Source of the DNA: a virus
Lineage: Duplodnaviria > Caudoviricetes
Length of the DNA stretch: 64,000 nt
Virus record (IMG/VR): IMGVR_UViG_3300001528_000699
Coordinates: 35,508 to 99,507 of that record
Direction: 5' to 3' (one strand)
Position 1 is the first letter of the stretch, and the number at the start of each line of letters is the position of its first letter. A program made the translations under genes and the position numbers. Shown one piece after another: positions 9,194 through 27,394 of the stretch. A model generated the notes under the pieces. It was not told the origin of the DNA, did not search any database, and saw only the letters and a list, made by a program, of their open reading frames with translations.

Positions 9194-9242
9194 AATTCTC
9201 TTGTTTTTAAAATATTAATAATTTTGTTCTGTTTCAACGATG

Positions 9243-9274: not shown

Positions 9275-9290
9275 TGTTTTCGGAGAAAAG

Positions 9291-9418: not shown

Positions 9419-9424
9419 TTCATA

Positions 9425-10304: not shown

Positions 10305-10309
10305 AAGAG

Positions 10310-10402
10310 TGTCAAGTTAAATCTAATCGAATTTTGGAAATGGCAACATCCAGCGATTAGAAGGCTGACAAAACCTATGAAACCAGAAATTGCCATTTCC
10401 AA
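10310..10402 (-). promoter_or_regulatory. Structured 5' leader (A-B-A'-B')
   Basis: Perfect 13-bp TTGGAAATGGCAA inverted repeat (10334-10346 / 10390-10402) interleaved with 10310-10329 / 10354-10370. Confidence 0.7.
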
Positions 10403-10405
10403 CTG

Positions 10406-10437
10406 TAAAAATACGATGAAATTTTTGGATAAACAAC
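10406..10437 (-). promoter_or_regulatory. Promoter of wHTH gene
   Basis: GTTG-N20-TATTTTTA on minus strand. Confidence 0.6.
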
Positions 10438-10439
10438 AA

Positions 10440-11100: not shown

Positions 11101-11102
11101 TT

Positions 11103-11133
11103 TTTGAGTTATAGAAAATAATCCGTATCTTTA
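11103..11133 (+). promoter_or_regulatory. Promoter of head module
   Basis: TTTG-N19-TATCTTTA. Confidence 0.7.
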
Positions 11134-11191
11134 TCACGATTATATCACCCTTCAAGAAAACGGGGTGTTGGTTAGAATAAAAAGAGAGAAT

Positions 11192-11749
11192 ATGATACTT
11201 TATAAATTTTTGAACGCTGATGAAACGGCGACCGCCAAGTACGTGACGGATTCCTTCTATGACGTGAACGAGAAAAAATCGTTAAAGCAATTTTACGTTA
11301 CGGAATTGAGAGAGGTATCTTCCGAGATCGTTAAAGCGGGTATCAATATCGAGATCGGGATGTATCATGAAGCACAGCTAATCGCCATGGCGAAAAAAGC
11401 TGGATTGACGCTGGAGAAATGGTCTGATAACACTTTCGTTGAAACGTTGGTGGTTATTCCCACTCAAAAGAACATGACTTTCACATCACCCACCGGGAAT
11501 ATCAAACAGGGAGCCGCTTTGAACTTCGCTTGGACGGCGGTTGCTAACGCTAAATTCTACGAGGTGTTCGTTTACCCGGATGGTTCAACTTACGATATAC
11601 TGAACCCTACTTTCACTGTAGAGGAAGGACCTATCGCTTCAACGAACACTTACCCGTTAGGAAAGATCAATTACGTGGTGCTGGTTCACCTGGAAAACGG
11701 GAACGTGGAGAAGAGTCAAGTCGCTTCATTCACTTCAACGGCAGCCTAA
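11192..11749 (+). CDS. Putative capsid decoration protein with C-terminal FN3/Ig-like domain
   Basis: LNFAWTAVANAKFYEVFVY FN3-like motif; N-domain similar to that of 22412 gene. Confidence 0.55.
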   Translation: MILYKFLNADETATAKYVTDSFYDVNEKKSLKQFYVTELREVSSEIVKAGINIEIGMYHEAQLIAMAKKAGLTLEKWSDNTFVETLVVIPTQKNMTFTSPTGNIKQGAALNFAWTAVANAKFYEVFVYPDGSTYDILNPTFTVEEGPIASTNTYPLGKINYVVLVHLENGNVEKSQVASFTSTAA

Positions 11750-11808
11750 TAAAATATATCGGACCCGGAATCAATCCGGGTTCATCTTTCATTAAACAAT
11801 AAAACGAG

Positions 11809-13542
11809 ATGAGTAGAAAGGTAAGAAATAACAATTCGGCGAGGGAACAATCCACGGGTTACGACAAGGTGATAAAGAGCATCGCCTCCATGTCATTCTC
11901 GGAGCTCAACTCGCTAGGCGAGGCTATCCCTACCATCTTGAACTCGAAATTACAGGCTTCACTCGCATCGGATGACGTGGAGAAGGCGATAGAGGCTGGG
12001 CTGTACGTGGAGAAACAACGTATCAGATCCACCGAGCAGAACAAATCCATTTTCTTCCTACCCGATAGCATCGCTTATTCGGGGCGTGGGTACAAGGAAA
12101 CTCTGAGCAGGATATCGTTTCAGACCCTTCAGAGGATGGGTAACCTCTATTGCGTGAAAAATGTCATATCAACCCGCATCGAGCAGATAACTCGTTTCCT
12201 GAAATTTTCTAACGATGAACAGAAGGAAGGGTTCACCATTCGAAAGAAGAAATCCTTGTTCGATTCGGGAGAGGATCGAGGGAAAATGACCAAAGGCGAG
12301 AGAAAAAGGGTAGAGAGAATAGTTAACTTCCTAGAGAACGGGGGAGAGACGGATAAGTGGGAGATGGCGGATTCCTTCGTTACCTTCGTGAGAAAGATCA
12401 TGCAGGATTCACTCTCCATCGATCAGCTCGCTTTCGAGATAACCAGAACGAGGGGTCAGGAGCTTCATCAATTCAAAGCGATAGACGGGAGCATGATACG
12501 GTTCCTCGATACCATCGACCCTAATTACGCTTCGCAATTCGAGAGGTACAGGTATAAAGGTTATCTCCCCAAATACTGTCAAGTTTTCGACCAGCAAATC
12601 GTTTTCAACAAGCAACTCGGTACTTACGTGATGTACTATCCGTGGGAGCTTGGGTTCGGGGTGAGAAACGTTGGAACGGATATTTGGCAGAACGGGTACG
12701 GGAGAAGCGAGCTTGAATCATTGATAGAGATAATTACCTATATCCTTAACGGGGTACAGTATAACGGTAACTTCTTCAAGAACGGGTCAAACCCGAAAGG
12801 GTTCGTTAATATAAAAAACATGAATACGAACTCGACGGCGTTAAACGATTTCAAACAGAAGTGGAGACAGATGCTTACGGGTACTGAAAACGCTTGGAAA
12901 TTGCCTGTTTTCTCAGGGTTGGACGTGGAGTGGATTCCGATTGGTGTCAATAACAAGGACATGGAGTTTGATAACTGGACCAAGTTCTTGATAGTTCTCC
13001 TATGCTCCGTTTACCGGATAGACCCGAGCGAGCTGGGATTCCAGTTCAAGGAAGCAGCTAACGTGTTCGGGCAGGACGGTCAGAAAGCTCGGTTGGATCA
13101 CAGCCGCCAGAAAGGTTTGTACCCACTCCTAATATTCCTTCAGGATATCATTAACAAGTTTATCGTGTCCGAGCTCGACGAGGAGATGGAGTTCGCGTTT
13201 ACTGGGATAGAGGTGGAGGACGAGGAGAAACAGGTTAAACTTGACGCTGATAAACTTTCAGCCGGTATGGTATCCATGCAAGACATGTTCAGAAAATACT
13301 CGGGGAGGGAGTTCGATGAGAACAAGGACATAATCCTCAACCAGGTGTACCAAACCCAGAAGCAAATGTCGATGTACGGTGGCGAGGGGATGAACCAGGT
13401 TGTTGACGAGCAAACGGGCGAACCTGAAGCGGGAGTTCCGAATCCCTTCGAGGAGATGGAGAGGAGCATGACCTCTAACCCTATTTTCGAGAAGGCTTGC
13501 GAGTTCATAGATAAAAGTTTCAACGATGACAACGAGGGATAG
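11809..13542 (+). CDS. Portal protein
   Basis: NGYGRSELE, YNGNFFKNGSNPKG, KDMEF..W, YRIDPSELGF; Herelleviridae-like portal. Confidence 0.93.
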   Translation: MSRKVRNNNSAREQSTGYDKVIKSIASMSFSELNSLGEAIPTILNSKLQASLASDDVEKAIEAGLYVEKQRIRSTEQNKSIFFLPDSIAYSGRGYKETLSRISFQTLQRMGNLYCVKNVISTRIEQITRFLKFSNDEQKEGFTIRKKKSLFDSGEDRGKMTKGERKRVERIVNFLENGGETDKWEMADSFVTFVRKIMQDSLSIDQLAFEITRTRGQELHQFKAIDGSMIRFLDTIDPNYASQFERYRYKGYLPKYCQVFDQQIVFNKQLGTYVMYYPWELGFGVRNVGTDIWQNGYGRSELESLIEIITYILNGVQYNGNFFKNGSNPKGFVNIKNMNTNSTALNDFKQKWRQMLTGTENAWKLPVFSGLDVEWIPIGVNNKDMEFDNWTKFLIVLLCSVYRIDPSELGFQFKEAANVFGQDGQKARLDHSRQKGLYPLLIFLQDIINKFIVSELDEEMEFAFTGIEVEDEEKQVKLDADKLSAGMVSMQDMFRKYSGREFDENKDIILNQVYQTQKQMSMYGGEGMNQVVDEQTGEPEAGVPNPFEEMERSMTSNPIFEKACEFIDKSFNDDNEG

Positions 13543-13864
13543 AAATTACAAGGGGTTGATCATCGTGCTGGCGTTCTTGTTAGCGGCGTTGTTCATATAC
13601 GTTAACAGACCGGAGGTTATCGAGGACAAGAAGGAGAGGGATGAAAGGGATAAGAAAGTCATCGATTCGCTTGGTAAGGTTAACGAGGAATTGTTGAAAC
13701 TTATCGAGGATCAAAGAAGGCGAGAGGATGAAGCCCATGAGAAGTTCAAGAAGGAAACCGAGAAAATGAAAAAGGAGTATGATAAGAAAATTCGTGATCT
13801 CAGCGATCTTAGCTCTGACGAGCACGTTCGCTTTCTCGCAAGAGAGTTATCCGAGAAAGATTAA
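13526..13864 (+). CDS. Spanin-like protein (N-terminal TM + coiled coil)
   Basis: TM helix then charged helix; overlaps next gene. Confidence 0.55.
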   Translation: MTTRDRNYKGLIIVLAFLLAALFIYVNRPEVIEDKKERDERDKKVIDSLGKVNEELLKLIEDQRRREDEAHEKFKKETEKMKKEYDKKIRDLSDLSSDEHVRFLARELSEKD

Positions 13865-14198
13865 GCTGGATGGTGATACTTGCGTGGTGATATCTGTTCC
13901 GCAGCTAAAAGCGATAAACTCACGGTTAGTTGAGAGACGGTATCTGAAAGCGGCGATCGATAGCTTGAGCGTTTACACCTCTAATCTGAATTCTTTTATC
14001 GAGGAGAAGAACAAGCAGATAGATAGTTTGGCCGTTTTGGCTTCGAATTATCGGTTTAGACTGCAAAACGAGATGGTTTTGAATTCTAAATACAGGGAAA
14101 AAAATATCGAGCTTAAAACAAATATAAAACGGAAAAAACGAAATTTTTGGATCGCGATCGGATTAGGGTTTTTTACCGGTTTTTTACTGGCGAGATAG
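13779..14198 (+). CDS. Secreted coiled-coil protein with C-terminal TM, spanin-like partner
   Basis: Signal peptide ending AFS-Q (Bacteroidota Q-rule); C-terminal FWIAIGLGFFTGFLLA. Confidence 0.55.
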   Translation: MIRKFVISAILALTSTFAFSQESYPRKIKLDGDTCVVISVPQLKAINSRLVERRYLKAAIDSLSVYTSNLNSFIEEKNKQIDSLAVLASNYRFRLQNEMVLNSKYREKNIELKTNIKRKKRNFWIAIGLGFFTGFLLAR

Positions 14199-14229
14199 TT
14201 GGAAAGAATAAACAAAGTTTATATTTTTA
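14198..14229 (+). promoter_or_regulatory. Promoter
   Basis: GTTG-N20-TATTTTTA. Confidence 0.55.
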
Positions 14230-14256
14230 GATCAGAAAAATAAAATAAAAATTGTT

Positions 14257-14736
14257 ATGGGATTTATAGAAGAACAAATACAGAAAAATATAGCGAATCG
14301 AGTTGCTATTGAGAAAGCGACGGGTAAAGAATTTACCGAATCCGATTGCTTGGATTTATTGGAGAAAGCTGGAAAAGCTGCTCAAATGGGTGAGGTTCGT
14401 ACATGGAACGGAAAAGAATACATCAAGACACCAAAGGGATGGAGACCGAAACCGAAAGGTTACAAGGAAGGTGAGAAGAAACAGGAAGTTACCGAAGCTG
14501 GAAACCCGGTTGGAAAACCTGAATCAGTGACATCTAAAAAAGTGACTGATGGATTTAAGGTTGGTGATCGAGTTATGTATCAAGGTAAGCTCATGGAATT
14601 GACTCGTATTAGCAAGGATGGTCGGTTCCAAAATGGTATCGAGATGAAATTCGTGAATGAAGGTGATTCAACACCAACCGGTAGTAAAACATTACAGGGT
14701 AATATGATGTACGCTAAACCTGTCAAGGAAAAATAA
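14257..14736 (+). CDS. Putative internal head protein with GExRxW module and SH3-like tail
   Basis: LEKA...GEVRTWNGKEYIKTPKGWRP; FKVGDRVMYQG. Confidence 0.65.
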   Translation: MGFIEEQIQKNIANRVAIEKATGKEFTESDCLDLLEKAGKAAQMGEVRTWNGKEYIKTPKGWRPKPKGYKEGEKKQEVTEAGNPVGKPESVTSKKVTDGFKVGDRVMYQGKLMELTRISKDGRFQNGIEMKFVNEGDSTPTGSKTLQGNMMYAKPVKEK

Positions 14737-14745
14737 TTATATATT

Positions 14746-14949
14746 ATGAATAAGAAAATATCCGGTATAGATATTAAGACTGTTAGACCGGTCGTTAAAA
14801 AGGAAAAGGCGGGGGTTAAAGACCCCGTCCGCTTTCCTGATGTCATAAACGGGTACGAGAACGAGAGCAAGAGGCTGTTCAACGAGGAGTTGAACCTTCT
14901 GTTCGCTGACGTGGTGAAAAAGATGGTTGGTATTATAAAGGATAAGTGA
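14746..14949 (+). CDS. Hypothetical protein
   Basis: ORF in operon. Confidence 0.6.
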   Translation: MNKKISGIDIKTVRPVVKKEKAGVKDPVRFPDVINGYENESKRLFNEELNLLFADVVKKMVGIIKDK

Positions 14950-15524
14950 TGGAAAATCTTGATATAAAAGCGTTGGATGTTATCGAGAAATCCGGTAAAC
15001 CGGCGCAGATAGGTGAAATCCGTGTTTGGAACGGAAAGCGGTATCACAAAACCCCTAAAGGCTGGCGACCGGTTCCAAAAGGTTATCGTGAAAACAAGCA
15101 AGATCCGGCGAAGATCAAATATCAAAACAAAGACGAAAGCTATAAACCGAAAGCCACCCATATCTGGGTCGATGGATTGAAGGATAATAGAGAGAAAGCC
15201 CTTCGCGTTATGCAAGCGATGAAGGATATTCAAGGTGGTTACGCTCAAGGAACTTTAACCAATCCATCTGAACTCGCTAGCTCTTATGTTAAGAAAAACG
15301 ATGGAGGAAGATGGATAAGTGATAATAACGGTGATAAAACGTTAATACAAGCTGTTCTCACTGGCGATGAGGTTGATTATAACGATGGATGGTATATCGT
15401 TGAAACGGACGGCGATGTTTTATACGTTGATGTGACCGGACAAGCTATGAATGAGAACCCGGATGATTACAAGAATATGGAATACGTTACCAGTGAGGGA
15501 TTGGAGTCCGGGAAAGAAGAATAA
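14946..15524 (+). CDS. Putative internal head protein with GExRxW module
   Basis: IEKS...GEIRVWNGKRYHKTPKGWRP followed by an unrelated domain. Confidence 0.65.
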   Translation: MMENLDIKALDVIEKSGKPAQIGEIRVWNGKRYHKTPKGWRPVPKGYRENKQDPAKIKYQNKDESYKPKATHIWVDGLKDNREKALRVMQAMKDIQGGYAQGTLTNPSELASSYVKKNDGGRWISDNNGDKTLIQAVLTGDEVDYNDGWYIVETDGDVLYVDVTGQAMNENPDDYKNMEYVTSEGLESGKEE

Positions 15525-15535
15525 AATAATTAATC

Positions 15536-17572
15536 ATGTTATTCAACAACGAGCAAATACAGGATATACTTGAATTGGTGGATTTCAGGTTCGCTGATCT
15601 GGTGTGGAAGATATTCGGACCATCTCATTTAACCTCGCAGGACAAGGAGAAGTTGAGAAAGTTCGGGGTGAACCCGTCATCGCTCGTTAAAAAAATACCG
15701 CCCTATTGGGCTAACTGGATGTTTGGCCTTCTATCAGGAAAATTGAATGATTACCAAACCAAGCAAATAACGTACAAGGATCTTCTCGAATATCTCGGAA
15801 GAAGGCAATACGAGACACCATCTAAAAGGGAGATAGAATCGTACGAGGTGGCCTGCAATCGCACGTACGGTTATTTGAAAGGGTTGGGTGATAAGATGAA
15901 GAAGGATATAACGAGTTACATATCTGATACCGAACTTCAAACTAGGATGGAGCAGGATCGTGTCATAAAGGAGGGGATAAAAAGAGGTATCTTGGAAAGG
16001 GATACGACAAAACTCATAGCTTCTAAAATAAGTAACCAGTTGGATGACTGGTCAAGGGATTGGAACAGGATAGTGGAGACGGAGTATCAGGGCGTTTTTA
16101 ACATGGGTAGGGTACAATCCTACATGAGAGAAGGAGACGGAGAGAATACGCTAATTTATTTCGACGTGTTTCCTGGCGCATGTTTTCCAACCTCTGATAC
16201 AGAATTTTTAACGGATGAGGGGTTTAAATTGTTAAAAGATATTAGGGGGGATGAAAAAGTTGCGTCATTTAATATTGAAACGAATACCTTGGAATATACT
16301 GAAATTGAAAGTAAAATTCAATATTGGTATGAGGGCGTGATGAATGAATATAAGCATCATTCCCTTGATATGATCTGCACCCCTAATCATAAACAATTAA
16401 TTGGGATAGATTACCACCCCAAAGAAGGTGTTTACACAAAAAATCAATTAATTGATAGTTCGGAAGTTCCTTCCTTAACAAAACGGGCATATATGTATTA
16501 TACCGTTGATAATTGGGTTGGGCATGATGATGAAAAAATTGAAATTGCAGGGAAAAGGTTTGATACAAAGCCTTTTGTGAAAATGATGGGTTGGTATTTA
16601 TCGGAAGGTTCAGTGGTTCCAAGAAAAAGTGACAAGAATGGTCATTATAATTCAACTCAGTTATGCATTTCGCAATCAAAAGTTAGTAATTTTGATGAAA
16701 TCAAGGATTGCCTAGATAAAACATTTTGCCAAAAAGTGTATTACAGTTCGTCTCGGAATAATATTGATGGTCATTTTGTCGTATTGTTGGATAAATCCTA
16801 TGATCCGTTCGTTAAGTGGTTAAAATCATTAGGTGATAGAGCGCATACGAAAACAATTCCAAAAGAAATAAAATTATTATCGAAAAAATATCTTTTTGAA
16901 TTTCTGCTATCTTATTGGAAAGGAGATGGTTTCGGTAGGGGTGGGACTTTTATGGATGGAAATCGTCATATTGTTACGTCATCAAAGCAAATGGCGGATG
17001 ATTTATCGGAGATAATTTTAAAGTGTGGTTACCGACCTTCATTAAAAATTATCGATAAGAGGGGTGTAACAACATTTTCAAAGAAAAGAAATAAGTCGTT
17101 TACCACCAGGCACCTGATTTATAAAGTGGGTATTTTGATAAGTAAACATTTTAATTCAATATATAAACATTTTAATGTGATTGATAATTGGAAAGGCGAG
17201 GTTGGTTGTTTGCAATTAAAAAAGAATTCGACATTATATATAAGGAGAAGTGGCCAATCAATTTGGAGCGGGAATTGTAGGCATTGTATAAGGTTATACT
17301 TAACCGGTGGAATAGGTAGCGAACCTAAATTGTTCACTATCAAGGAATTGATGGGAAACGGAACTAATATAGGTAGAAAGGTAAATGATTGGAAACCAAC
17401 GGTTATAACCAGTATTCACCCCTTCTGTAGGTGCTTGGCTCGCAGGTATATGAAAGGCGATGTCTGGGACAAGGAAACGAGATCATTCAAGCAACCTGAA
17501 CATTACGAGAGAAAGGTGGCACCTAAAGTGAAAGTCAGAATACAGGTAGGTGATAAAGTTTTCAACGTTTAA
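15536..17572 (+). CDS. MuF/SPP1 gp7-like head morphogenesis protein containing an intein
   Basis: WNRIVETE, CRHC and HPFCRC MuF motifs flank the insertion. Confidence 0.85.
   Translation: MLFNNEQIQDILELVDFRFADLVWKIFGPSHLTSQDKEKLRKFGVNPSSLVKKIPPYWANWMFGLLSGKLNDYQTKQITYKDLLEYLGRRQYETPSKREIESYEVACNRTYGYLKGLGDKMKKDITSYISDTELQTRMEQDRVIKEGIKRGILERDTTKLIASKISNQLDDWSRDWNRIVETEYQGVFNMGRVQSYMREGDGENTLIYFDVFPGACFPTSDTEFLTDEGFKLLKDIRGDEKVASFNIETNTLEYTEIESKIQYWYEGVMNEYKHHSLDMICTPNHKQLIGIDYHPKEGVYTKNQLIDSSEVPSLTKRAYMYYTVDNWVGHDDEKIEIAGKRFDTKPFVKMMGWYLSEGSVVPRKSDKNGHYNSTQLCISQSKVSNFDEIKDCLDKTFCQKVYYSSSRNNIDGHFVVLLDKSYDPFVKWLKSLGDRAHTKTIPKEIKLLSKKYLFEFLLSYWKGDGFGRGGTFMDGNRHIVTSSKQMADDLSEIILKCGYRPSLKIIDKRGVTTFSKKRNKSFTTRHLIYKVGILISKHFNSIYKHFNVIDNWKGEVGCLQLKKNSTLYIRRSGQSIWSGNCRHCIRLYLTGGIGSEPKLFTIKELMGNGTNIGRKVNDWKPTVITSIHPFCRCLARRYMKGDVWDKETRSFKQPEHYERKVAPKVKVRIQVGDKVFNV
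16181..17275 (+). mobile_element. Intein (365 aa) with LAGLIDADG-type homing endonuclease
   Basis: Starts CFPTSDTEFLT; block B CTPNH; GWYLSEG and SYWKGDG motifs; ends WSGN before +1 Cys; AT-rich. Confidence 0.9.
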
Positions 17573-17573
17573 A

Positions 17574-17605
17574 ATTGTTTAAACCGAAATAAAGACTTAT
17601 TTTTA
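17574..17605 (+). promoter_or_regulatory. Promoter
   Basis: ATTG-N20-TATTTTTA. Confidence 0.55.
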
Positions 17606-17634
17606 TCCGAAATTAGTGATAAAATAGAAATATA

Positions 17635-18270
17635 ATGGAAGAAACAAGTACTCTCGTGAAGTTGATAGCTGATAACGGTATAACGGTCGTGCTAAGTGCT
17701 GTCACGATAATCATATTCTTGAACGTTTTCCGGAAAGCTACTAGAAACTGGGAGAGGATGGAAAAGAAGAATGATCACCTCATCGACTTGATAGTGGCGA
17801 AAGGAACTGCCGGTGATTACATGGAGAAACAGATCGAGATAAATAACAACATGCTTTCCATATTGAAAGAGATAAGGGAGGGTGCGACGAAAGAATGCAC
17901 GATAGAGCAAGTCAAAACAACCACTAACGCTCTTTTCGATCTCGCCAAGTTCACCATGTTCGAGGAGGTGAAACGGATAAAAAAGGAGAATCATCTAAAT
18001 AACGAGGCGGCTATCGAAACGAAAGTGAAAACGATCGTTCATCAAAGAATAAATGACAGGAAAAGCAAACTGTACAATTACAACTGGAAGGGAAAGCCTT
18101 TAAGCGAGTTTAACTCCGTTTCGAAGGATGATATAGTCGATATAATGATAGGGGAGCTCTACGCGCCTGACGATTTCTCGGAAGAGAGGGTGAAAAGGAA
18201 TATGGAGCTTTTCTATGATAACATGAAACTTGATTTGTTCAATGAAATTGTGGCGTATAATAATTTATAG
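17635..18270 (+). CDS. Single-TM protein, holin-like
   Basis: IADNGITVVLSAVTIIIFL N-terminal TM then helical soluble domain. Confidence 0.5.
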   Translation: MEETSTLVKLIADNGITVVLSAVTIIIFLNVFRKATRNWERMEKKNDHLIDLIVAKGTAGDYMEKQIEINNNMLSILKEIREGATKECTIEQVKTTTNALFDLAKFTMFEEVKRIKKENHLNNEAAIETKVKTIVHQRINDRKSKLYNYNWKGKPLSEFNSVSKDDIVDIMIGELYAPDDFSEERVKRNMELFYDNMKLDLFNEIVAYNNL

Positions 18271-18271
18271 T

Positions 18272-19999
18272 ATGAACTGGTTGAAAAAGATACTTGGAAT
18301 GACGGCGTGTAGCAAGGAGGAGAAGGTAGCCCGCTACATGGAATTGTTGAAAAGCATGGATGTTATCGAATCGGAAGCTGACGAGCTGGCCGATTCTTTC
18401 CGTTTAAACAAATCGATGGTTGATAACGTGAAGGGTTGTGACATGGAAGAGATGGATAAGAGATTGGAAAGATTTGATGAGTTCATGCTGTGTCATAAGA
18501 AGGATGTTCACGAGCTACTGAAGGCGAAGATGGAAGTGGAGGATGAGATGAAGAAATTGAAGGAAGACCCCTCTATCTCTAAAGATATCAATGACATCGA
18601 TACTTATTTTAAAGCCAAGAAAGAATACAAGGCACGGAAATCAACGTTGAAAGAATTTAACGGTTCGATCAGGAAAGCGAAAGAAGGTCCTGTCAAGTAC
18701 TCGGATGCCTTGGTGTTCGATTGTAACGGGAAATTGTTGATCCTTCACAGGATACAGGATGGCAAGCATTGCGAGGGAGGTGAATGGTGCATCCCCGGTG
18801 GTCACGTTGATCCGGGTGAGAACCATCGTGAAGCGGTAGAGAGGGAATTGAAAGAAGAAACCGGGTTGAAATTGAGAATGGAACCTGATCCGGCTGGATT
18901 CTATAACGACGATGAAGCGGATATTCATTATTACCGTGCCTTCACTGAAGAGAGTGAACCCTCTATCCTGGTTGATAGCACGGAGCATGATGGCGTGGAA
19001 TGGATAGATTTGAGAGATATAGACAAGTACGATTTCATATTCAACATGAAAGATAACCTTAAAAAATTACTCGGCATGGAAGAGAAAGAAGAGAAAGGAC
19101 CGGATACCATAGAGATACTCGCTAAAGCGTTAAAATCCGGTCAGATAACACCGGCTGTTTTCAGGGAAGCGGTCGAGAAAGCTAAAAATAAAACTTATTT
19201 CTCGGAGAAGGAACGTGGAAAACTCGCTAAAGAAGGCGAAGCGATGCCTAACGGGAAATATCCAATAAGAAACGCTCAAGATTTGAAGGATGCCATTAAA
19301 CTGGTTGGGGCGTCATCCATGCCGGAAGGTGAGGTAAAATCGTGGATCAAGAAAAGAGCGAAAGAGTTGAACCTTGAAAACGAGCTACCAGAAGATTGGA
19401 GGGATGTCGAGAAAGCGGTGGGAACGGAACAGGCGGAAACTATCGCGAGAGAATCGCTAGACGGTGAAATGAAGGATGATCGGGTTGAGAAATCGTCCTT
19501 CTCTATTCGCGTTGATTTCGATGACTTGGAGAAAGCCGATCTTTTCAAATCCATGGTGGAGAAATATAAATCGGAGGGTGATCTCGGTATAACGAGTGTT
19601 GACGTGATCGATATTGATGAAAACGAGGATAAAGAAATTTTCCGGGATTACCTGAACTTCATCGAGGGTGCTAAAACGAGAATCAAGAACCTGCACTGGA
19701 CGGAAGAGGATAACGCCAAGCACGTTTACCTAGATGAATTATCTGAAGAGGTGTCAAAATTCGAGGATAAGATAGCGGAAGCGGGTCAAGCGAATTTCGG
19801 TCGGTTCAAGGATGGTGAGATAGTGGGTGATGATATCCAAACGAGCGATCCTATCATGATCGTTGACCTTTTACTTGATATGACGAGCTCTTTCCGGTCC
19901 AAGTTGAATGAAAGACTCGTTTATAACGGTGAGATTTCATGGGTGGATGATTTCCTCGCCACTTTAAAGCAGATCAAATATCGTTTGCAATTACATTAA
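18272..19999 (+). CDS. Multidomain protein: coiled coil + Nudix hydrolase + DUF6582-like + Dps/ferritin-like (DUF5856-like)
   Basis: Nudix box GHVDPGENHREAVERELKEETGL; PNGKYPIRNAQDLKDAI...LPEDW; KNLHW...HVYLDE...EDKIAE. Confidence 0.8.
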   Translation: MNWLKKILGMTACSKEEKVARYMELLKSMDVIESEADELADSFRLNKSMVDNVKGCDMEEMDKRLERFDEFMLCHKKDVHELLKAKMEVEDEMKKLKEDPSISKDINDIDTYFKAKKEYKARKSTLKEFNGSIRKAKEGPVKYSDALVFDCNGKLLILHRIQDGKHCEGGEWCIPGGHVDPGENHREAVERELKEETGLKLRMEPDPAGFYNDDEADIHYYRAFTEESEPSILVDSTEHDGVEWIDLRDIDKYDFIFNMKDNLKKLLGMEEKEEKGPDTIEILAKALKSGQITPAVFREAVEKAKNKTYFSEKERGKLAKEGEAMPNGKYPIRNAQDLKDAIKLVGASSMPEGEVKSWIKKRAKELNLENELPEDWRDVEKAVGTEQAETIARESLDGEMKDDRVEKSSFSIRVDFDDLEKADLFKSMVEKYKSEGDLGITSVDVIDIDENEDKEIFRDYLNFIEGAKTRIKNLHWTEEDNAKHVYLDELSEEVSKFEDKIAEAGQANFGRFKDGEIVGDDIQTSDPIMIVDLLLDMTSSFRSKLNERLVYNGEISWVDDFLATLKQIKYRLQLH

Positions 20000-20004
20000 A
20001 AATA

Positions 20005-20025
20005 ACGGGTCTTAACAGGACCCGT
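20005..20025 (+). terminator. Intergenic hairpin
   Basis: ACGGGTCTT-AAC-AGGACCCGT; weak T-tail. Confidence 0.4.
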
Positions 20026-20042
20026 CCTTATATTTCATAACC

Positions 20043-22193
20043 ATGTTGAGTGAATTATTTAACGATATAAAGAAATCGAAGAACGTCGCCTCTATCGGTG
20101 AGAAGCGGAAGTGGGGAGATAGGTGGTACATGAAGACCCCTCGCGGATGGGTGCTCACCAATGAAGAAGTGAATAAATTAACCGAGGAAGCTTTTCGTGC
20201 TAGAGAGGAGGAACTTGAAAGGAGAATAAATGAAGATCCCGAATTCCGTGCCCGCTATCAGAAAGAGCACGGTGAGGGATACACACCTTTCGTTCATTTA
20301 AAAGGAAATATCTCGGTAAAAGAAGTCGCTGGCATTCGGTTAAGAAATAGCGGTATTGACACGAAAGCTAAGAACTTGATGGCGCTTTTTCTACCGAAGG
20401 CCGGGCAATGGGTTATCCCGATGCTGGGAGTGAACATTCCTCTAACCGATAAGATGAGGGAAGTGATCAGGGAACGGGGAAGATGCGAGCTGTATTTCAG
20501 GAAAACGAAGAACGCGGCACCCGTTCGTGTGATGGTTGAAATGGATGAACGTGGTCGTTTTAAATTCACGGAAGCCACGAAAAGAGAAGGGAAAGTAGAT
20601 GAATGGAAACTGTCTGTTGGTTCGGCTCTTGATCATGGATTATCCGGTCCTCATTTTTACAGTATCGACCTTGTCATGCCTTTCAAAGATGATATAGAGA
20701 AAGCGAAAGGTGCCGCTATCGGAGAGGAAAGGGAGTGGGGTGGAAAGGTTTACGTTAAAACTGTAAAAGGGTGGAGACCTAAAGGAAAAGGCGCGAAATC
20801 ATCAGAGGATGATGAGGTCAAAACAGATCAATCTTCCAAAAATGAAATTCAGGGCGGCGATAAAAAAGCGATTCTTGAAGGGTACGCGTCTCAAGCGACT
20901 GACAAGCAACTTGAAACCGCCATGAATAAACCCGGTCAATCGGAAGAGGTGAGAAATATCGCCAAGCAAGAACTTGAAAATCGAGGGAAGGAAGTGAAGG
21001 AAGTTGAGGATGAAATTTCTTCGGCTTTAAATAAGCTGTTACAAAGCGATGAATTTGATGATGAATTTAAGAGGTTGCTTCAATCAAAACTCGATGAGAG
21101 AACAGCTAAAAAACAGGAAAAAGAGAGTGAATCGGGAGAGAAGAAAGAGTTTGAATCATTCAAGAAGGAAGTAACTGAAAGGTTGGATAAACTTGAACAA
21201 GAAAATTCAGGTCACAAGCAGATAAAGAAAACGGGAATCATCGTTGACGGAAAGAAAATTTTTATCACGATGGATGGCGATCGTTATCAAGCGAAGAAAG
21301 GTGGTGAGACCTTGAAATCAGAACCGAATGAATCTCTGTCTAGTTTCAAGGATAAGGTGAGGGAAAAGTGGGGTGAAAAACAGGGGGAAGAAAAGGGCGA
21401 GCTAGAAAGAGATAAATTACCTGAAACACCCGAAATTGATATTCCGTTAGAAAGGATTAAAAAGGCAATAAGTGAGGGTGATTATAAAAACAATTGGTTT
21501 TATAAAATGGTAATGGAAGATTCCGATGAAGCTCTCAGTTTCAGGAATGATAGAGAATTTCAACTTCTTTCAAACGCGGCGTTGCTTGAAAAAGGATTAC
21601 GCCCTGTAATGGCACCCTTTGCGTTCACGGAATATGGTGGTGTGCAGTATAAGAGTTATGATCAGTATTTCATGGATTCGAACGATTCATTGAATATTTA
21701 TAAGAAGAAATTCAGGCCTTCAAGATCGATTTACACCAAGGCGGAAAAGGATGCGATGGAGGATTATAGTGGTGCGTATTTTGAATCCGTTCGAAGTTTT
21801 AATATTGATGGAACAGTGCCGTCATATCATGAAAAAGAGAAGGATGCGATTCGCCATACATCCGAATTAATTAAATCTTTTATAGATAGGAATCGATTGA
21901 AAGAGAATGTTATTCTGAGTCGTCGCTTAAATTTTAAGGAGGGTGAAGAAAATCCATTTTTAAATCTTAAACCGGGTGATACATTTACCGACCCTTCATT
22001 CGGTTCATATTCACTCCGTCAATTATCAAGTTTTGGTCATTTTCAAATAACGTTACTCGCGAAGAAAGGTCAAGCTATATCAGCGATAAAATCAAATTGG
22101 CTGGGAGAACAAGAACTTCTTGCCCAAAAAGGATTGAAGTTTAAGGTTCTTGAAACCGGATATAAATCTATTGCGGTTGAGATAGTTGATTAA
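20043..22193 (+). CDS. Putative internal head protein with two GExRxW modules and C-terminal ADP-ribosyltransferase (VIP2/Alt-like)
   Basis: R-S-E signature: ILSRR, FGSYSL, GEQELL; GEKRKW and GEEREWGG modules. Confidence 0.85.
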   Translation: MLSELFNDIKKSKNVASIGEKRKWGDRWYMKTPRGWVLTNEEVNKLTEEAFRAREEELERRINEDPEFRARYQKEHGEGYTPFVHLKGNISVKEVAGIRLRNSGIDTKAKNLMALFLPKAGQWVIPMLGVNIPLTDKMREVIRERGRCELYFRKTKNAAPVRVMVEMDERGRFKFTEATKREGKVDEWKLSVGSALDHGLSGPHFYSIDLVMPFKDDIEKAKGAAIGEEREWGGKVYVKTVKGWRPKGKGAKSSEDDEVKTDQSSKNEIQGGDKKAILEGYASQATDKQLETAMNKPGQSEEVRNIAKQELENRGKEVKEVEDEISSALNKLLQSDEFDDEFKRLLQSKLDERTAKKQEKESESGEKKEFESFKKEVTERLDKLEQENSGHKQIKKTGIIVDGKKIFITMDGDRYQAKKGGETLKSEPNESLSSFKDKVREKWGEKQGEEKGELERDKLPETPEIDIPLERIKKAISEGDYKNNWFYKMVMEDSDEALSFRNDREFQLLSNAALLEKGLRPVMAPFAFTEYGGVQYKSYDQYFMDSNDSLNIYKKKFRPSRSIYTKAEKDAMEDYSGAYFESVRSFNIDGTVPSYHEKEKDAIRHTSELIKSFIDRNRLKENVILSRRLNFKEGEENPFLNLKPGDTFTDPSFGSYSLRQLSSFGHFQITLLAKKGQAISAIKSNWLGEQELLAQKGLKFKVLETGYKSIAVEIVD

Positions 22194-22217: not shown

Positions 22218-22394
22218 ATGATGGAAGAGAATAACTTAATTAGAACGGTAAAAGAAGTGGATATCACCGGCATTAAATTTAATTATAACAGCGGTAAATC
22301 TAATCATGATAATTCTATCCTGATCAATGCTATTAAAAAGATCGGTGATGGTATTGAAGAATTGGAACGGGATAAAACCGGTAAAGAAAGTTAG
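22218..22394 (+). CDS. 58-aa hypothetical protein downstream of ART (not in ORF track)
   Basis: MMEENNLIRTVKEVDITGIKF...KTGKES*; fills the intergenic gap. Confidence 0.55.
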   Translation: MMEENNLIRTVKEVDITGIKFNYNSGKSNHDNSILINAIKKIGDGIEELERDKTGKES

Positions 22395-22411: not shown

Positions 22412-24238
22412 ATGCAGATTTTCACTTACAAGAAAAGAGATTTCAGTAATTTAAACATACACGCCACACGGATAGATAACCAGGGGTTATTCTTTTTGAG
22501 CGATATTCAAAGCCAAACCACGCAGCATTGGGTGCTGATGGGTTTTGATTGGACGCTCGGTTATAGGACATACCCCGAGATGATCGATCTGGCGAGAAAA
22601 CTTAAAGCCATTCTTTGCATATTCGAGAACGGGAAGCTGGTTGAATGTTTCGATTTCGAGGAGGATCTTGTTCTGACCTATGAACAAGAGATAGCGGTTA
22701 ATGATCCGCTTGAAAACGCACCTGTTTGGAATGAAGGTGTTGGTGGAGTTATCGAGGCACCGGAAGCCGTGGTGATAGACGAGGAAATCGTGTTACGATT
22801 CATCCCTTTACCCGGATTCACATTCAAAGGGTGGTACGACGAGAACAATGTATTGATATCAACTAATCAAGATCATAAATTCACGGTTAAGAAATCCGAG
22901 ACGATAACCGCTAGATCTCAGAAAAGATGGTACAACGTCTCTTGCGAGTTTGATAACGATATGGGTCTTGTTAACGGTCTTGGTAGGTATGTTTACGGGA
23001 CGGAGGTAACGTTGACGGCTATCGGAAAGATGGGTTACAAATTCAAAGTGTGGTCTGACGGTTACACGGAGGCGGTTAGAAAAGTAACGGTAACCGAAAA
23101 TATCAATTTGGAAGTCGAGTTCGAGGTGAATGACGTGGTGGTTAACGCGAAAGTTTACCCGGTTGGAGCGGGTTCGATCACTAACGTGAATAACATAACG
23201 CAGGAAGGTCAAACGGCTGACTTCCTGGCCACGCCAACCGATGATTACCTGTTTGACGAGTTCACCTACGCGACGGAGGAAGATCCAACAGGAGAGGAAG
23301 CGTTATCATCCAAGACGAACCCTGTCAAGATAAAACTTCTAGCTGGAAGAAATATAACGGCGAGATTCAAGTTACCGGTGGTTGACGTGAATATGATCGC
23401 TAAAACGGGGTATAATGAGGCTGATCCGCAAGTTGCGACAACCTTTTCTGAAGGAACAACCGGTGGAACGATCTCTAATCAAGGCGGTTTGCTAACACCC
23501 GGAACATCATTTCAAAGTACCGCCACGCCAGCCGAAGGGTACGAGTTCGTTGGTTGGTACAACCTTCTATCAGGTGGAACGCTATTATCAGCAAACGCCA
23601 CTTACACGAATAATGTCGGTAATTCTGACACGACGATATACGCTCGTTTCCAGAAGAAGTGGTACACTATAACGGCAACGAAAGGCGATTACATAGAATC
23701 AGTCGAGGTTGGACCTAGCTTGCCTCCAACGCAAGAAGGTAACGGTACCATGAGAATAGCTCACGGAGAAGGAGTGATTCTGTCTTGCACTTTATTACCC
23801 GATACAACCGATTACACGTACGATTTTGATGGATGGTACGATAACGGGGTTAAAGTACAGAATGAAGGAACCACGGCGGCGATAGATCCCGTAACCAAGA
23901 ATATAAACTGGACCGCCAAGGGAAAGAGAACGGCAACGCCAGATTATTCGCTGACCGCTAAGGCCGTTTTCAAGGCTATCGGTTCAGATACCTACGTTGA
24001 ATCAACAGAGGGTGGGACTGTTACCCCGACATCAGGTTCATACAAGAGCGGTGCGAGAGTGACGTTAACATCCGAGGTTGCGGCTGACACCGAAACGGCG
24101 GAATATCTGTTTGACGGTTATTTCACGGGGATGAATGACGGAAATAATTTATCGTACAGCAAAACGTACGGCGTAACGATAAGCGGTAACACGACCGTTT
24201 ACGCTAGATTCAGCGCGTCTGAGAAGAGCGGTAGTTAG
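22412..24238 (+). CDS. Putative capsid decoration protein with tandem divergent InlB B-repeat (Flg_new-like) domains
   Basis: Repeated GY.F.GW / Y.FDGW and 'ARF' ends; N-domain shared with 11192 gene. Confidence 0.75.
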   Translation: MQIFTYKKRDFSNLNIHATRIDNQGLFFLSDIQSQTTQHWVLMGFDWTLGYRTYPEMIDLARKLKAILCIFENGKLVECFDFEEDLVLTYEQEIAVNDPLENAPVWNEGVGGVIEAPEAVVIDEEIVLRFIPLPGFTFKGWYDENNVLISTNQDHKFTVKKSETITARSQKRWYNVSCEFDNDMGLVNGLGRYVYGTEVTLTAIGKMGYKFKVWSDGYTEAVRKVTVTENINLEVEFEVNDVVVNAKVYPVGAGSITNVNNITQEGQTADFLATPTDDYLFDEFTYATEEDPTGEEALSSKTNPVKIKLLAGRNITARFKLPVVDVNMIAKTGYNEADPQVATTFSEGTTGGTISNQGGLLTPGTSFQSTATPAEGYEFVGWYNLLSGGTLLSANATYTNNVGNSDTTIYARFQKKWYTITATKGDYIESVEVGPSLPPTQEGNGTMRIAHGEGVILSCTLLPDTTDYTYDFDGWYDNGVKVQNEGTTAAIDPVTKNINWTAKGKRTATPDYSLTAKAVFKAIGSDTYVESTEGGTVTPTSGSYKSGARVTLTSEVAADTETAEYLFDGYFTGMNDGNNLSYSKTYGVTISGNTTVYARFSASEKSGS

Positions 24239-24254: not shown

Positions 24255-25043
24255 ATGATAGAGAATAGATTTAATTTTTGGGTCCCGATTGATATAGAGA
24301 AAGCGAGATCCGACAAGGAAAAAGAAGATGATTCCCGCTACGATAACATGGTGTTCGAGGGCGTGGCGAGTGATGATAGCGAGGATGATGAAGGGGAATC
24401 GATGAATCCAAGCGGGTTCGTGCTGGATAGATTCCTGAAAAGCGGTTTATTGAACCTTGACCACCTAACCTCGAGAGCGAAAGAGAATAAGTCTCGGTTT
24501 TGGATAGGTGAGCCGATTGACGCTTACGTGAAGGATAATAAATTCTTCGTGAAAGGAAAATTGTGGAAGAAATCGCCAGAAGCGAGGGCGTTCTGGGATA
24601 AGTGTATCCAGATGTCGGAGTCCGGTTCATCCCGTAAACCGGGAATGTCGATAGAAGGGAAAGTGATAGAGAGAGATAAAATGAACCCAAGAAAGGTAAA
24701 CAAGGCATTGATCACGAACGTGGCTTTAACCTTTCAACCGGTGAACACGAACTCTTTCTTCGATATCGTGAAAGGTCGTCAATCAAAAGATTTCATCGAT
24801 TACGAGTTTGAAAGCGACAAGGATTTTGATGAAAATGACAAGGTGATACTTGAATGGGAAGACGAGAGAGGCAACCTCCTGATGCTTGATTCAAAATTCA
24901 AGATCAAGGTGAAGAAAAAGCCAGAGTACAAGGTGGAAACGATCGAAAAGATGGCGAAAAGTTTCTCGGAAGGATCCGTTTCAGAGAGGGTTTATATCGA
25001 TTTCATCAAAAAGATAGAGAAAAATTTCCGTTTATCAAATTAA
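24255..25043 (+). CDS. Prohead maturation protease
   Basis: FEGVAS..SEDDEGE, NLDH, GMSIEG, NVALTFQPVN. Confidence 0.9.
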   Translation: MIENRFNFWVPIDIEKARSDKEKEDDSRYDNMVFEGVASDDSEDDEGESMNPSGFVLDRFLKSGLLNLDHLTSRAKENKSRFWIGEPIDAYVKDNKFFVKGKLWKKSPEARAFWDKCIQMSESGSSRKPGMSIEGKVIERDKMNPRKVNKALITNVALTFQPVNTNSFFDIVKGRQSKDFIDYEFESDKDFDENDKVILEWEDERGNLLMLDSKFKIKVKKKPEYKVETIEKMAKSFSEGSVSERVYIDFIKKIEKNFRLSN

Positions 25044-25095: not shown

Positions 25096-25839
25096 ATGAA
25101 ACCTATTACGAGTGAAATAGTGCAGGAACTGCAAAAAAGGGGGATTTCTTTGGATCAATACTGTGGCGACGAGGTCGTGAAAGCGTTGTTGGACGCTGAG
25201 TTCGATCACGATTATATTTTGAAGAGTATCGATAACGGAGACATCACCACTTTCGCTAAATCAAAGTACACTGAGAAAGAAGAAATCGAGTACGATGAGA
25301 ATAAAGCGGGAGAGCACGAAAGACGTGATTTCGAGGAAGGAAAAGAAGAAGGCGAGAAAGAGGAAAAAGAAGAAATCGAAAAGAAGAAAAAAGATAAGAA
25401 GGATGTTGAGAAATCGGAAGAAGATAAAGGTGAAGAGATGAAGAAATCCATCGAGAGTGACCTTTATAAATCTCAACGTGAATTTTTCGAAGAGGTTAAC
25501 GCTTCCTTGAGCGAGATGAAGGATTTGATGAAATCCATGGGAGAGGAGCTTGAAACCTTGAGAAATCAACCGATGCCTTTCCGTTCTGTCGATAAAGGTG
25601 CCGTTTTGGAGAAATCTTTCGGTGTTAAAACAACCGACGAAGGAAAGAAAATTTTATCCAAATCCGCTCATCGTGAACCGTTAAAACGGGTTATGACCGA
25701 GTGCTTCGAGAAAGAGGAAGATAACGAGATGAAGAAATCTCTCGCTAATGATATCATGTCTTACTCTACCGGTACCATGTCACTTTCACAAGCGACCATC
25801 GATTACCTGAGTAAGAAAGGAATTGAAGTAGTTGAATAA
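25096..25839 (+). CDS. Capsid scaffolding protein
   Basis: Highly charged, between protease and capsid, ten hydrophobic-x-K-[S/A] sites. Confidence 0.75.
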   Translation: MKPITSEIVQELQKRGISLDQYCGDEVVKALLDAEFDHDYILKSIDNGDITTFAKSKYTEKEEIEYDENKAGEHERRDFEEGKEEGEKEEKEEIEKKKKDKKDVEKSEEDKGEEMKKSIESDLYKSQREFFEEVNASLSEMKDLMKSMGEELETLRNQPMPFRSVDKGAVLEKSFGVKTTDEGKKILSKSAHREPLKRVMTECFEKEEDNEMKKSLANDIMSYSTGTMSLSQATIDYLSKKGIEVVE

Positions 25840-25870: not shown

Positions 25871-27394
25871 ATGGTTGGAGAACAATTTGATTTTAATGGA
25901 GTAACTCCGGGAATCGACCGGGGAGAGTTCTTATCCGCCGATATTCTGAAGGCCATGGAAGCCGGGTTACAAACCGGTATGCAATACGCTAACACCTTGA
26001 ATAACGGTGGCGGCTTGAAAGTGGAGTCTTTGGATGGCGTCATCAAGGTGTTGGAATACACTGAGAAACAATTGGTGTTGTGGAAAAACATCGGTAAAAA
26101 GAAAATTTACAACACCGTTCATCAATACAACCAGTTAGTGAAATACGGTAACAATATCGGGATCGCTAACTTGGAAGGTGAAACACCTCAATTCACCGAT
26201 TCTCAATACAGACGGAAACCGATCATCACCAAGTTCTTGGGAGTTAGCGGTCAGGTAACGCATCCCGCAACCTTGGTTCGTATCGCCGCTGAAGGGGATT
26301 CAATGTACGAATTAGAGGTTCGTAATAAAACCTTGTTATTGTTACAAAACCTGAACGTTGCCCTGTCTAACTTCGATAGTAGCTGTATCGACGAGGAGTT
26401 TTCCGGTATCTGGCAGCAACACGTTGAGGGTATCCTCGATATTTACGGAGGTATGTCAGGAAAAACTTCCGAGGCGATCCTTGACACCTATTATAACGAT
26501 CCGGCTGTTGTTAACGCTGATGGTAATATCTTGAGCGACTTCAGCTTGCAAGAAGCAACGAACACCATCGTTAACTTGCGTTACGGTTTCGCTGACAAGA
26601 TCATCGCCAATCCGATCGTTTTCACTGACTACGTGAACGCTCATACAGCTAACAAGGTGTTGAATGTGAACGGTGTATCTGGAAGTATGATGAATGCTCG
26701 TGCCGGGTTACAAGTAACCAGCGTTGCAACTCAGTTCGGTGACATCGATTTCATGGCCGACCCGTTCTTCGATAGCAAACCGGCTCGTTTGGCAACTTCA
26801 CCAGCTACTAACGACAAAGCCCCGGCCGCCCCGGTTAAAGATAACACAGCCGCAGTTGCGGTGGTAAACAACGATACGAAGACCAATTTCACGAACCACG
26901 AAGGATCTTACCTGTACGCTGTTGCCGCCAAGAATCGCTATGGAGAAAGTGCGTTGACTAAATTGAACGACGTTGCTCAAGCAGTGACAAAAACTCAATC
27001 CGTTGATTTGAAATTCACCGCGGCCGTTGATTCAGTTTACCCGACTCAAGCATTCGTGATCTACCGTACGGAAGTTAACCCGGCAAACGCCGCAACCGCT
27101 AATTACTACCCGATTTTCCAAATCCCGGTATCTCAGTTAGCTTCAGGTTACGACGGTGCTGCCGCTAACGCTGTTCGTGATAGAAACCGTTCTATCGCAG
27201 GAACTCACTCGGCTTTGGTATTCAAGATGGATGATTCCTTGATCCAATACTTGCAATTGGCTGACACGATGAAGATGGAGTACGCTATCACTTCACCGAG
27301 TAGACGCTTCTCTATCTTGAATTACGGTACGCCGGTACTGTACGCTCCTGGTAAGTTTGTGAGAATTTGCAACATTGGACGTAAAGCGGAATAA
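25871..27394 (+). CDS. Major capsid protein
   Basis: LKAMEAG, GGGLKVESLD, TVHQYNQ, YAVAAKNRYGESA; Herelleviridae-like; strong terminator downstream. Confidence 0.92.
   Translation: MVGEQFDFNGVTPGIDRGEFLSADILKAMEAGLQTGMQYANTLNNGGGLKVESLDGVIKVLEYTEKQLVLWKNIGKKKIYNTVHQYNQLVKYGNNIGIANLEGETPQFTDSQYRRKPIITKFLGVSGQVTHPATLVRIAAEGDSMYELEVRNKTLLLLQNLNVALSNFDSSCIDEEFSGIWQQHVEGILDIYGGMSGKTSEAILDTYYNDPAVVNADGNILSDFSLQEATNTIVNLRYGFADKIIANPIVFTDYVNAHTANKVLNVNGVSGSMMNARAGLQVTSVATQFGDIDFMADPFFDSKPARLATSPATNDKAPAAPVKDNTAAVAVVNNDTKTNFTNHEGSYLYAVAAKNRYGESALTKLNDVAQAVTKTQSVDLKFTAAVDSVYPTQAFVIYRTEVNPANAATANYYPIFQIPVSQLASGYDGAAANAVRDRNRSIAGTHSALVFKMDDSLIQYLQLADTMKMEYAITSPSRRFSILNYGTPVLYAPGKFVRICNIGRKAE

Follow-up and report, generated by a model that had tools for sequence, protein, structure and literature searches.

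A small protein domain at the start of predicted cargo units in the head-gene block of a large lineage of mostly uncultured myophages

A repeated protein module is encoded in the head-gene block of a tailed phage (Caudoviricetes; IMG/VR record IMGVR_UViG_3300001528_000699). The stretch of DNA analyzed, referred to as the window, comprises the final 64,000 nucleotides (nt) of a complete genome, which is 99.5 kb long and carries direct terminal repeats. As judged from sequence comparison, the module is a small protein domain not described so far, and it marks the beginning of every cargo unit in a group of predicted head-encoded effectors. Its carriers form a large lineage of myophages, most of them uncultured, with head genes similar to those of Herelleviridae. 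We infer that the cargo is packaged and cleaved and that the module functions as its handle. The whole chain of events, in which cargo enters the prohead, the prohead protease cuts before every module, and the module retains the cargo until ejection, is given about an even chance of being correct.

The first-pass annotation of the window had proposed four copies of a module of about 30 residues, each placed directly after a hydrophobic-x-K-[A/S] site. A six-frame motif scan of the 64 kb for GExRxW followed by KTxxGW yields exactly four matches, all on the + strand and near the positions proposed, with the G of the module at nt 14389, 15012, 20097, and 20721. The sites described upstream are seen as well, namely LEKA (nt 14359), IEKS (nt 14982), IKKS (nt 20067), and IEKA (nt 20694). 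The module is thus real, but its size is nearer 40 residues once the preceding [LI]-E-K-[GAS] segment is included. Eleven invariant columns are common to the four copies, and a profile made from them has no further match in the 99.5-kb genome. Many synonymous positions differ between the copies, which rules out recent duplication or a DNA-level repeat as their origin; their conservation is therefore on the protein level.

Three open reading frames (ORFs), all on the + strand, carry the four copies. The first (14257..14736, 159 amino acids (aa)) is composed of a helical leader, the LEKA site (nt 14359-14370), the module sheet (nt 14389-14448), a P/K/G-rich linker, and a small beta-rich C-terminal domain, which is shuffled among relatives. 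An AlphaFold2 (AF2) model of this protein contains helices at residues 3-21 and 28-38 and strands at residues 47-50, 53-58, and 61-64; the SH3-like domain previously assigned to it is not confirmed, and the model gives only low-confidence beta strands. In the second protein (14946..15524, 192 aa), the IEKS site (nt 14982-14993) and the module sheet (nt 15012-15071) precede an acidic C-terminal domain without assigned function, and the sole homologue of this cargo part is found in L012 (L numbers denote loci used for comparison). The third ORF (20043-22193, 716 aa) contains two copies, at residues 19 and 227, and consists of two units. Unit A (20043..20693) has the IKKS site (nt 20067-20078), the module sheet (nt 20097-20150), and a conserved domain of ~170 residues without family match, and is kept in 11 relatives. 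Unit B (20694..22193) starts with the IEKA site (nt 20694-20705) and the module sheet (nt 20721-20780), followed by a long charged linker and a C-terminal R-S-E ADP-ribosyltransferase (ART; about nt 21708-22154). The ART had already been recognized at the end of the linker, and its assignment is confirmed by a PF03496 match above the cutoff (E 5e-6; 26.4 bits vs. 23.4 bits) and by the motifs LSRR (residue 625), GSYS (residue 654), and GEQE (residue 688), which occur in the expected order (R / SxS / ExE). The domain hence belongs, by its sequence, to the R-S-E clade of ARTs (C3/VIP2-like, PF03496), with predicted activity.

A scan of IMG/VR provided 25 loci, from which an alignment of 29 diverse module copies was built. 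The corresponding profile was searched exhaustively against 1.84 billion cluster representatives and matches 1,507 protein clusters at E<=1e-3, of which 315 also reach E<=1e-10; the module-bearing representatives are 74-2224 aa long and possess one to four copies each. The consensus is [acidic]-x-[LI]-E-K-[GAS]-x-K-x-A-x-[IM]-G-E-[IV]-R-x-W-x-G-x-x-[YF]-x-K-x-x-x-G-W-x-P. AF2 prediction on the module alignment gives a three-stranded antiparallel sheet (GExRxW / xYxKT / GWxP) with a pLDDT (predicted local distance difference test score) of 90-92. The E-K-[GAS] segment is less ordered in this module-only model and forms the end of a helix just before the sheet in the full model of the 159-aa protein.

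The first-pass annotation had named, as one outcome that would refute its proposal, that the module be a known general domain unlinked to head genes; the module does not correspond to any such domain in Pfam, NCBIfam, or the Protein Data Bank (PDB). A module-only search of Pfam at E<=10 retrieved nothing except Vault (E 0.028, below the cutoff of that family), none of the Pfam-represented LPD families matches, NCBIfam contains no match, and a profile search of PDB sequences gave nothing below E 0.7. Among PHROGs, the sole match is phrog_4272 (E 1e-4), annotated as 'unknown function', and no usable prior description of the module was found in the literature searched. With regard to structure, a Foldseek search of the module model against the PDB found nothing at E<=0.001 (best 8y6v_I, E 0.33), and a VIA-align comparison with 48,161 chains reached at best Z 2.2; with a query of 55 residues, both outcomes are uninformative. 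Both searches rank first the same 34-residue beta fragment of the phiKZ capsid structure (8y6v chain I), a weak likeness whose scores are not significant. Foldseek against BFVD retrieved only true sequence homologues from human-virome phages (38-64% identity), which are either named by their cargo or uncharacterized.

Outside these collections, tblastn against 50,697 GenBank phages found no match for the 192-aa protein, the 716-aa protein, or the protein P0073. One scan of 185,579 prokaryote species genomes with a strict back-translated DNA pattern detected no convincing module copy; a match in an Omnitrophota metagenome-assembled genome lacks the GW strand, scores 16.6 bits, and was judged not to be a module. 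The absence of convincing prokaryote copies fits a virion function in lytic phages.

Within proteins, the position of the module is regular. The first copy starts no more than 60 residues from the N-terminus in 127 of the 150 best proteins, and any additional copies are spaced by a median of 288 aa; a protein of 2,224 aa, for instance, has copies at residues 4, 651, 1231, and 1892. These proteins are therefore concatenated units, each comprised of module, linker, and cargo.

The position of the module genes in the genome is equally regular. In the window, the head-gene block runs in the order portal, two small overlapping membrane-protein genes, the 159-aa gene, the 192-aa gene, a MuF-like gene with an intein, a 211-aa gene without assigned function, a NUDIX multi-domain protein, the 716-aa gene, a 58-aa ORF, a Listeria-Bacteroides repeat protein, prohead protease, scaffold, and major capsid protein (MCP). 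The portal (11809..13542, +; PF04860, E 2.8e-18; phrog_12, E 6.7e-35) forms the upstream boundary of the cargo region. The location given in the first-pass annotation, between portal and prohead protease and beside MuF, agrees with these flanking genes, the MuF-like gene being assigned by a weak PHROG match. At every locus with enough flank (L005-L029, L031, L036, and L037 were assessed), the clear copies belong to the head-gene block, where nearly all of them are flanked by the portal on one side and the protease or MCP on the other, and the module genes usually adjoin MuF-like and NUDIX genes. This location holds from phages whose portals are 86-98% identical down to those whose portal and MCP are 25-35% identical; an exception is L020, where the module gene lies ~4 kb downstream of the capsid gene.

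Every module-bearing record of sufficient size, among them all four with a completeness of at least 90%, encodes a homologue of the window protease, and protease homologues are found in 760 phage records. Among GenBank phages, the protease match led to one cultured carrier, Chryseobacterium phage MA9V-3 (PV245944.1), a lytic myovirus. It encodes three module proteins (XQU63102.1, XQU63100.1, and XQU63098.1) between portal and MuF, each with a hypothetical-protein annotation. A natural module-less comparator is L032 (MT835500.1), a human faecal phage that has portal, MuF, NUDIX, protease, scaffold, and MCP in common with the window (portal, protease, and MCP at 45-53% identity) and contains no module-bearing gene in the 37 kb of head region examined. 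As the same head genes occur there without a module gene, the system is accessory.

The cargo behind the module is highly diverse, as had been claimed. Many unrelated enzymes are fused to it across the profile matches, including Gln_amidase (glutamine deamidase), ddrB-ParB, NUDIX, Zeta_toxin, PBECR1 RNase, InPase, ART-PolyVal, Kinase-PolyVal, Topoisom_I, RadC, SAM lyase, UvrD helicase, LPD1, and leucine-rich repeats, and the cargo of 60 units taken from the loci forms 19 clusters unrelated to one another. The profile search hence turned out as the first-pass annotation had predicted, with matches in head-gene blocks that are fused to diverse enzymes. The slot just after the portal is occupied by one to three module genes whose C-terminal domains are recombined in different orders among phages with 86-98% identical portals. 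Unit B ends in an ART only in the window and in L005, L006, and L008; it has another ending or is short in other relatives, and in L010-L016 the ART is replaced or absent. The effectors are thus interchangeable, as had been suggested, because cargo is swapped among phages with nearly identical portals.

In the distant phage L036 (the contig of protein P0008), nine module copies are distributed over three consecutive genes right after the portal (4700-16672), and the cargo of P0008 comprises ART-PolyVal, RadC, and DUF5661. The modules of this locus have a variant form, [AS]-K-x-[YF]-P-[IV]-G-T-x-R-x-W, and a Tad2-like (anti-Thoeris) gene is located just downstream of the module genes (18070-18324). 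The SAM lyase, ART-PolyVal, and RadC cargo, together with the nearby Tad2-like gene, points to an anti-defense cargo set. In the distant phages L022, L024, and L037, it is the NUDIX protein that carries modules, unlike that of the window.

The segment upstream of the module was analyzed as a candidate protease site. The pattern x-x-K-[GAS] occurs at a fixed distance upstream in 222 of 226 modules, with L or I at P3 in 197 and E at P2 in 172; the P1' residue is G in 150, A in 48, and S in 24. In the remainder of the cargo proteins, the motif occurs about as often as expected (412 observed vs. 400 expected), and it is found just after the module in only 18 of 223 copies, which rules out a downstream site that would excise the module as a free peptide. 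The same motif, written as phi-x-K-[GAS] with phi for a hydrophobic residue, is strongly enriched in the scaffold (25096..25839, +), with 11 sites vs. 1.6 expected from shuffles (p<0.0005, ~7-fold), and is also frequent in the NUDIX protein (11 vs. 3.3 expected, p 0.0005) and in the protease (6 vs. 1.7 expected, p 0.0075). The MCP (25871..27394, +; phrog_752, E 2.7e-57) possesses a single such site (ILKA, residues 25-28), which lies within an L-K-A-[MI]-x-A-G block kept in five MCPs of 31-52% identity. In ten phages of the lineage (the window and nine others), G, A, or S follows the phi-x-K of the scaffold in roughly 60-80% of cases.

Prohead proteases typically destroy the scaffold and trim the capsid protein at its N-terminus. 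Since the scaffold enrichment and the N-terminal site of the MCP match these tasks, the simplest reading is that the prohead maturation protease of the window (24255..25043, +; Herelleviridae type; phrog_1028, E 4.4e-39), the candidate enzyme for these sites, would cut between phi-x-K and a small residue, and that every module would start just after such a bond. The protease site previously proposed upstream of each copy is in this way supported statistically, by its presence in nearly all modules, the scaffold enrichment, and the MCP site, with cleavage predicted.

Some further occurrences of the motif were observed in the same block. The N-terminus of the protease (24255-24310) reads ...P-I-D-I-E-K-A..., which contains the same D-I-E-K-A string as found before the fourth module, and protease homologues in L019, L022, L024, and L031 have phi-x-K-[GAS] at residues 15-24, which suggests N-terminal self-processing. 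The NUDIX and DUF5856-like multi-domain head protein of the window (18272..19999, +; PF00293, E 3.9e-20) is devoid of the module and rich in phi-x-K-[GAS], and looks like a polyprotein processed by the head protease.

In the mechanism proposed here, a cargo unit would consist of an acidic residue, [LI]-E-K, the scissile bond, G/A/S, a short loop, the basic mini-sheet (GE[IV]RxW / xYxKT / GWxP), a flexible P/K/G/E-rich linker, and the variable cargo. Cargo precursors would be built into the prohead, and the prohead protease, which would also trim the MCP and shred the scaffold between phi-x-K and a small residue, would cut before every module. These cuts would remove the leaders and split multi-unit polyproteins into single units, each of which would retain the module at its new N-terminus. 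The module could then serve as a common handle that keeps the cargo inside the head, via a conserved head component or DNA, until it exits with the genome. A more demanding version, in which the module is a self-sufficient and transplantable capsid-loading handle, so that proteins placed behind a leader, [LI]EK-G, and the module would be loaded, released by the protease after K, and delivered with the DNA, is put forward only tentatively.

Several points weigh against this mechanism. Co-occurrence of the module with head genes and the protease is partly phylogenetic, because all carriers belong to one head-gene lineage. A clear copy in G005 (E 2.9e-13) is located ~3 kb upstream of the portal, outside the portal-MCP interval, and weaker matches lie outside this interval in G006 and G008. 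The P1' residue is mostly G in modules vs. mostly S in scaffolds; therefore, [LI]-E-K-G could be a structural helix cap, instead of or besides a cleavage site. The literature searched offers no usable experimental cleavage specificity for the Herelleviridae-type protease family, and the MA9V-3 paper reports neither a virion proteome nor N-terminal sequences or packaging experiments. With the predicted cut upstream of it, the module would stay on the cargo, unlike the capsid-targeting sequence (CTS) of phage T4. In addition, Iyer et al. defined LPD domains that are not represented in Pfam, and the module may be identical to one of them.

The basic character of the module raises the question of whether the mini-sheet binds nucleic acid, so that the cargo would co-eject with the genome or sit on the incoming phage DNA, with prohead loading brought about by something else, such as the leader helices. 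Its net charge is +4.1 +/- 2.0 across 226 copies, and it is better conserved between distant phages (typically 40-60% identity) than the portal, MCP, MuF, and protease of those phages (25-56%), as would be expected for an invariant ligand. Many cargo domains also act on DNA (topoisomerase I, UvrD, ParB-like, RadC, and primase-like), and T4 internal proteins are embedded in DNA (PMC3012670). However, DNA binding cannot explain entry into the prohead, since DNA filling comes only afterwards, and the module shows neither a match to any DNA-binding family nor a significant structural match. Many cargoes, such as ART, kinase, NUDIX, and InPase, target proteins or nucleotides, and the conserved W, W, Y, G, and P may simply be the core of so small a domain. 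Such a tether is considered unlikely.

The tight coupling between site and sheet, both of which are present in 222 of 226 copies, could also mean that the module only serves processing. It would then lie on the P' side as a folded element, present the [LI]-E-K-[GAS] bond, cap the new N-terminus, and delimit units, with no role in targeting. This would agree with the lack of site enrichment elsewhere in the cargo and with the placement of modules exactly at unit boundaries. In the view of Iyer et al., polyvalent proteins have to be split into their units, usually through a zincin-like peptidase embedded in them; the 25 commonest Pfam families of 65 large carriers include no peptidase family, so another processing device would be needed here. 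On the other hand, the sites in the scaffold, MCP, and NUDIX protein are apparently used without a module, which implies that the protease does not need it, and many carriers are single-unit proteins with a very short leader (5-15 aa), in which there is little to separate. A role in processing alone is accordingly rated as improbable, at a level a little below that of a DNA tether.

Considerably lower is the probability that the module is a host-directed or generic interaction domain, that is, a WW-like mini-sheet that binds a host peptide or envelope component once injected, or a mere spacer, in which case the head-block location would reflect only late co-expression. The pattern W-x-G-x2-Y-x-K-T-x2-G-W-x-P and the three-stranded sheet superficially recall WW domains. 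In WW domains, the two Trp residues are spaced by about 20-22 residues and the Pro follows three residues after the second Trp; in the module, the Trp-Trp spacing is 12 and the Pro is at +2, and no Pfam WW match appears even at E<=10, so that only the three-stranded topology is in common. Moreover, one host-binding domain on enzymes with very different targets is hard to explain, and the strict N-terminal, unit-initial position and the coupled site would be left without explanation. The least probable reading is that the proteins are no virion cargo at all and are accessory intracellular effectors in a recombination-tolerant slot of the head operon, with the module as a family-specific N-terminal domain; the portal-MuF slot is clearly a gene-exchange hotspot, but this reading would explain neither the coupling to a motif shared with scaffold, MCP, and protease, nor the constant location in phages whose portal and MCP are only 25-35% identical, nor a domain repertoire typical of MuF-fused or virion-associated polyvalent proteins.

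The proposed packaging, cleavage, and retention of cargo can be compared with several known systems. In phage T4, CTS-bearing proteins are packaged in the head and injected, and the tag is portable to foreign proteins (PMC3012670). The module resembles the CTS of T4 IPI-III and Alt (PMC3012670) as a shared N-terminal element on unrelated anti-host proteins that is coupled to a prohead-protease site. The T4 element is a short unstructured leader that targets the scaffolding core and is cut off, whereas the module is folded, ~40 residues long, also internal, and present in up to four copies, with its predicted cut upstream; the two have no sequence similarity, and the proteases are of different families. 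The T4 prohead protease cuts at L/I-x-E, and the module site would be phi-x-K followed by a small residue.

Inner-body proteins of phiKZ and SPN3US, which are processed by gp175/gp245 (PMC11297242, PMC10052503), offer a second likeness in that many head-internal proteins are cut at a simple motif. In phiKZ, gp93 and gp162 were reported to bind the inner face of the capsid through their N-terminal parts, with other parts making up ejected material (PMC11297242). Lineage, protease specificity, and sequences differ from those of the module system, and no common repeated folded tag has been described there. The protease specificity of phiKZ and SPN3US is S/A/G-x-E. By analogy, the module system would work like the T4 CTS and the phiKZ inner proteins, being a member of neither.

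MuF-fused polymorphic toxins of temperate phages, reportedly described by Jamet et al. in 2017, are said to combine variable effectors with a constant virion-incorporation domain encoded beside the portal. The constant part there is a MuF domain of ~300 aa, whereas here it is a 40-aa module and MuF is separate. In addition, the phages with MuF toxins are temperate, and module carriers were absent from prokaryote genomes in the one strict scan.

The polyvalent proteins of Iyer et al. 2017 were predicted to be packaged in the capsid and delivered with DNA, based on their location and on MuF fusions (PMC5512222); the proposed connection to the virion is MuF fusion, and processing is ascribed to a zincin-like metallopeptidase embedded in the protein (PMC5512222). 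Module proteins share with them the repertoire of ART-PolyVal, PBECR1, InPase, Kinase-PolyVal, ddrB-ParB, LPD1, NUDIX, Zeta toxin, and RadC, as well as the location among late or virion genes, the predicted delivery with DNA, and the need for processing into units. In relatives of the window, at least two domains of disparate activity from this repertoire occur in one polypeptide; in the window itself, only the 716-aa protein, with its unassigned domain and PF03496 ART, weakly shows such an architecture. The neighborhood is likewise that of late or virion genes, with the MuF-like gene adjacent and unfused (MuF_C occurs in 1 of 65 proteins). They differ from the module proteins in that MuF is separate here, no metallopeptidase is seen, and a repeated module with a head-protease site stands before each unit. 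Injected head proteins, capsid-targeting tags, and polyvalent proteins are known already; what appears to be new is the domain itself, the head-protease site coupled to it, and its role as a repeated unit header that replaces MuF fusion and the embedded metallopeptidase.

Several neighboring genes of the window have features of their own. The MuF-like minor head protein (15536..17572, +) contains a 365-aa intein at nt 16181-17275 and has no match to Pfam Phage_Mu_F (PF04233). Its intein-less homologue matches phrog_115, phrog_758, and phrog_4728 weakly (E about 2e-4 to 6e-4), and its CxxC...HPxCRC motif is invariant in eight homologues; an H-x-x-C-R-C zinc motif is what we take to be the mark of MuF / SPP1 gp7 minor head proteins. 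The intein has Cys as its first residue, ends in SGN followed by Cys, shows a weak LAGLIDADG_3 match, and is inserted exactly within the CxxC of the conserved zinc motif. The MuF-like genes of the close relatives L005, L006, and L007 are intein-less (313-315 aa), and MuF ORFs of 667-1031 aa in other relatives suggest other or additional inteins. Portal ORFs in L010, L012, L014, and L016 (e.g., L010:4083-7211) have ~1043 aa vs. 577 aa in the window, with only ~362 residues aligning in one piece, and are probably intein-bearing as well.

Between the portal and the first cargo gene, two overlapping genes (13526-13864 and 13779-14198) encode small membrane-anchored proteins, one of which has a weak Rz-like spanin PHROG match; the second is kept down to L017/L018. 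Neither p211 nor the small membrane proteins qualify as a dedicated adaptor, being missing from several module-bearing loci. The ART gene is followed by the 58-aa ORF (22218-22394) and a 608-aa InlB B-repeat (Flg_new) protein (22412-24238), both of which occur in the ART-bearing L005 and L006 and are absent from L010, L012, and L014, where the second cargo unit has no ART. The three may travel as one cassette, and the 58-aa ORF could encode a partner or immunity protein of the ART.

Proteins injected by phages act in the first seconds of infection, in anti-restriction, anti-defense, and host takeover, and are hard to recognize by sequence; except in T4 and a few jumbo phages, no rule tells which proteins are packaged. 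If the proposed role is true, the module would label injected effectors in one step across more than 1,500 protein clusters. As these clusters carry ARTs, RNases, kinases, SAM lyase, nucleases, and many unassigned domains, they would amount to a catalogue of counter-defense candidates. The cleavage code of a widespread head protease would be defined as well, and a natural fusion tag would be available with which foreign proteins could be loaded into phage capsids; the cultured carrier MA9V-3 makes the handle idea testable. Were the handle self-sufficient and transplantable, the full injected arsenal of a large clade of phages, which probably infect Bacteroidota, could be readable from sequence.

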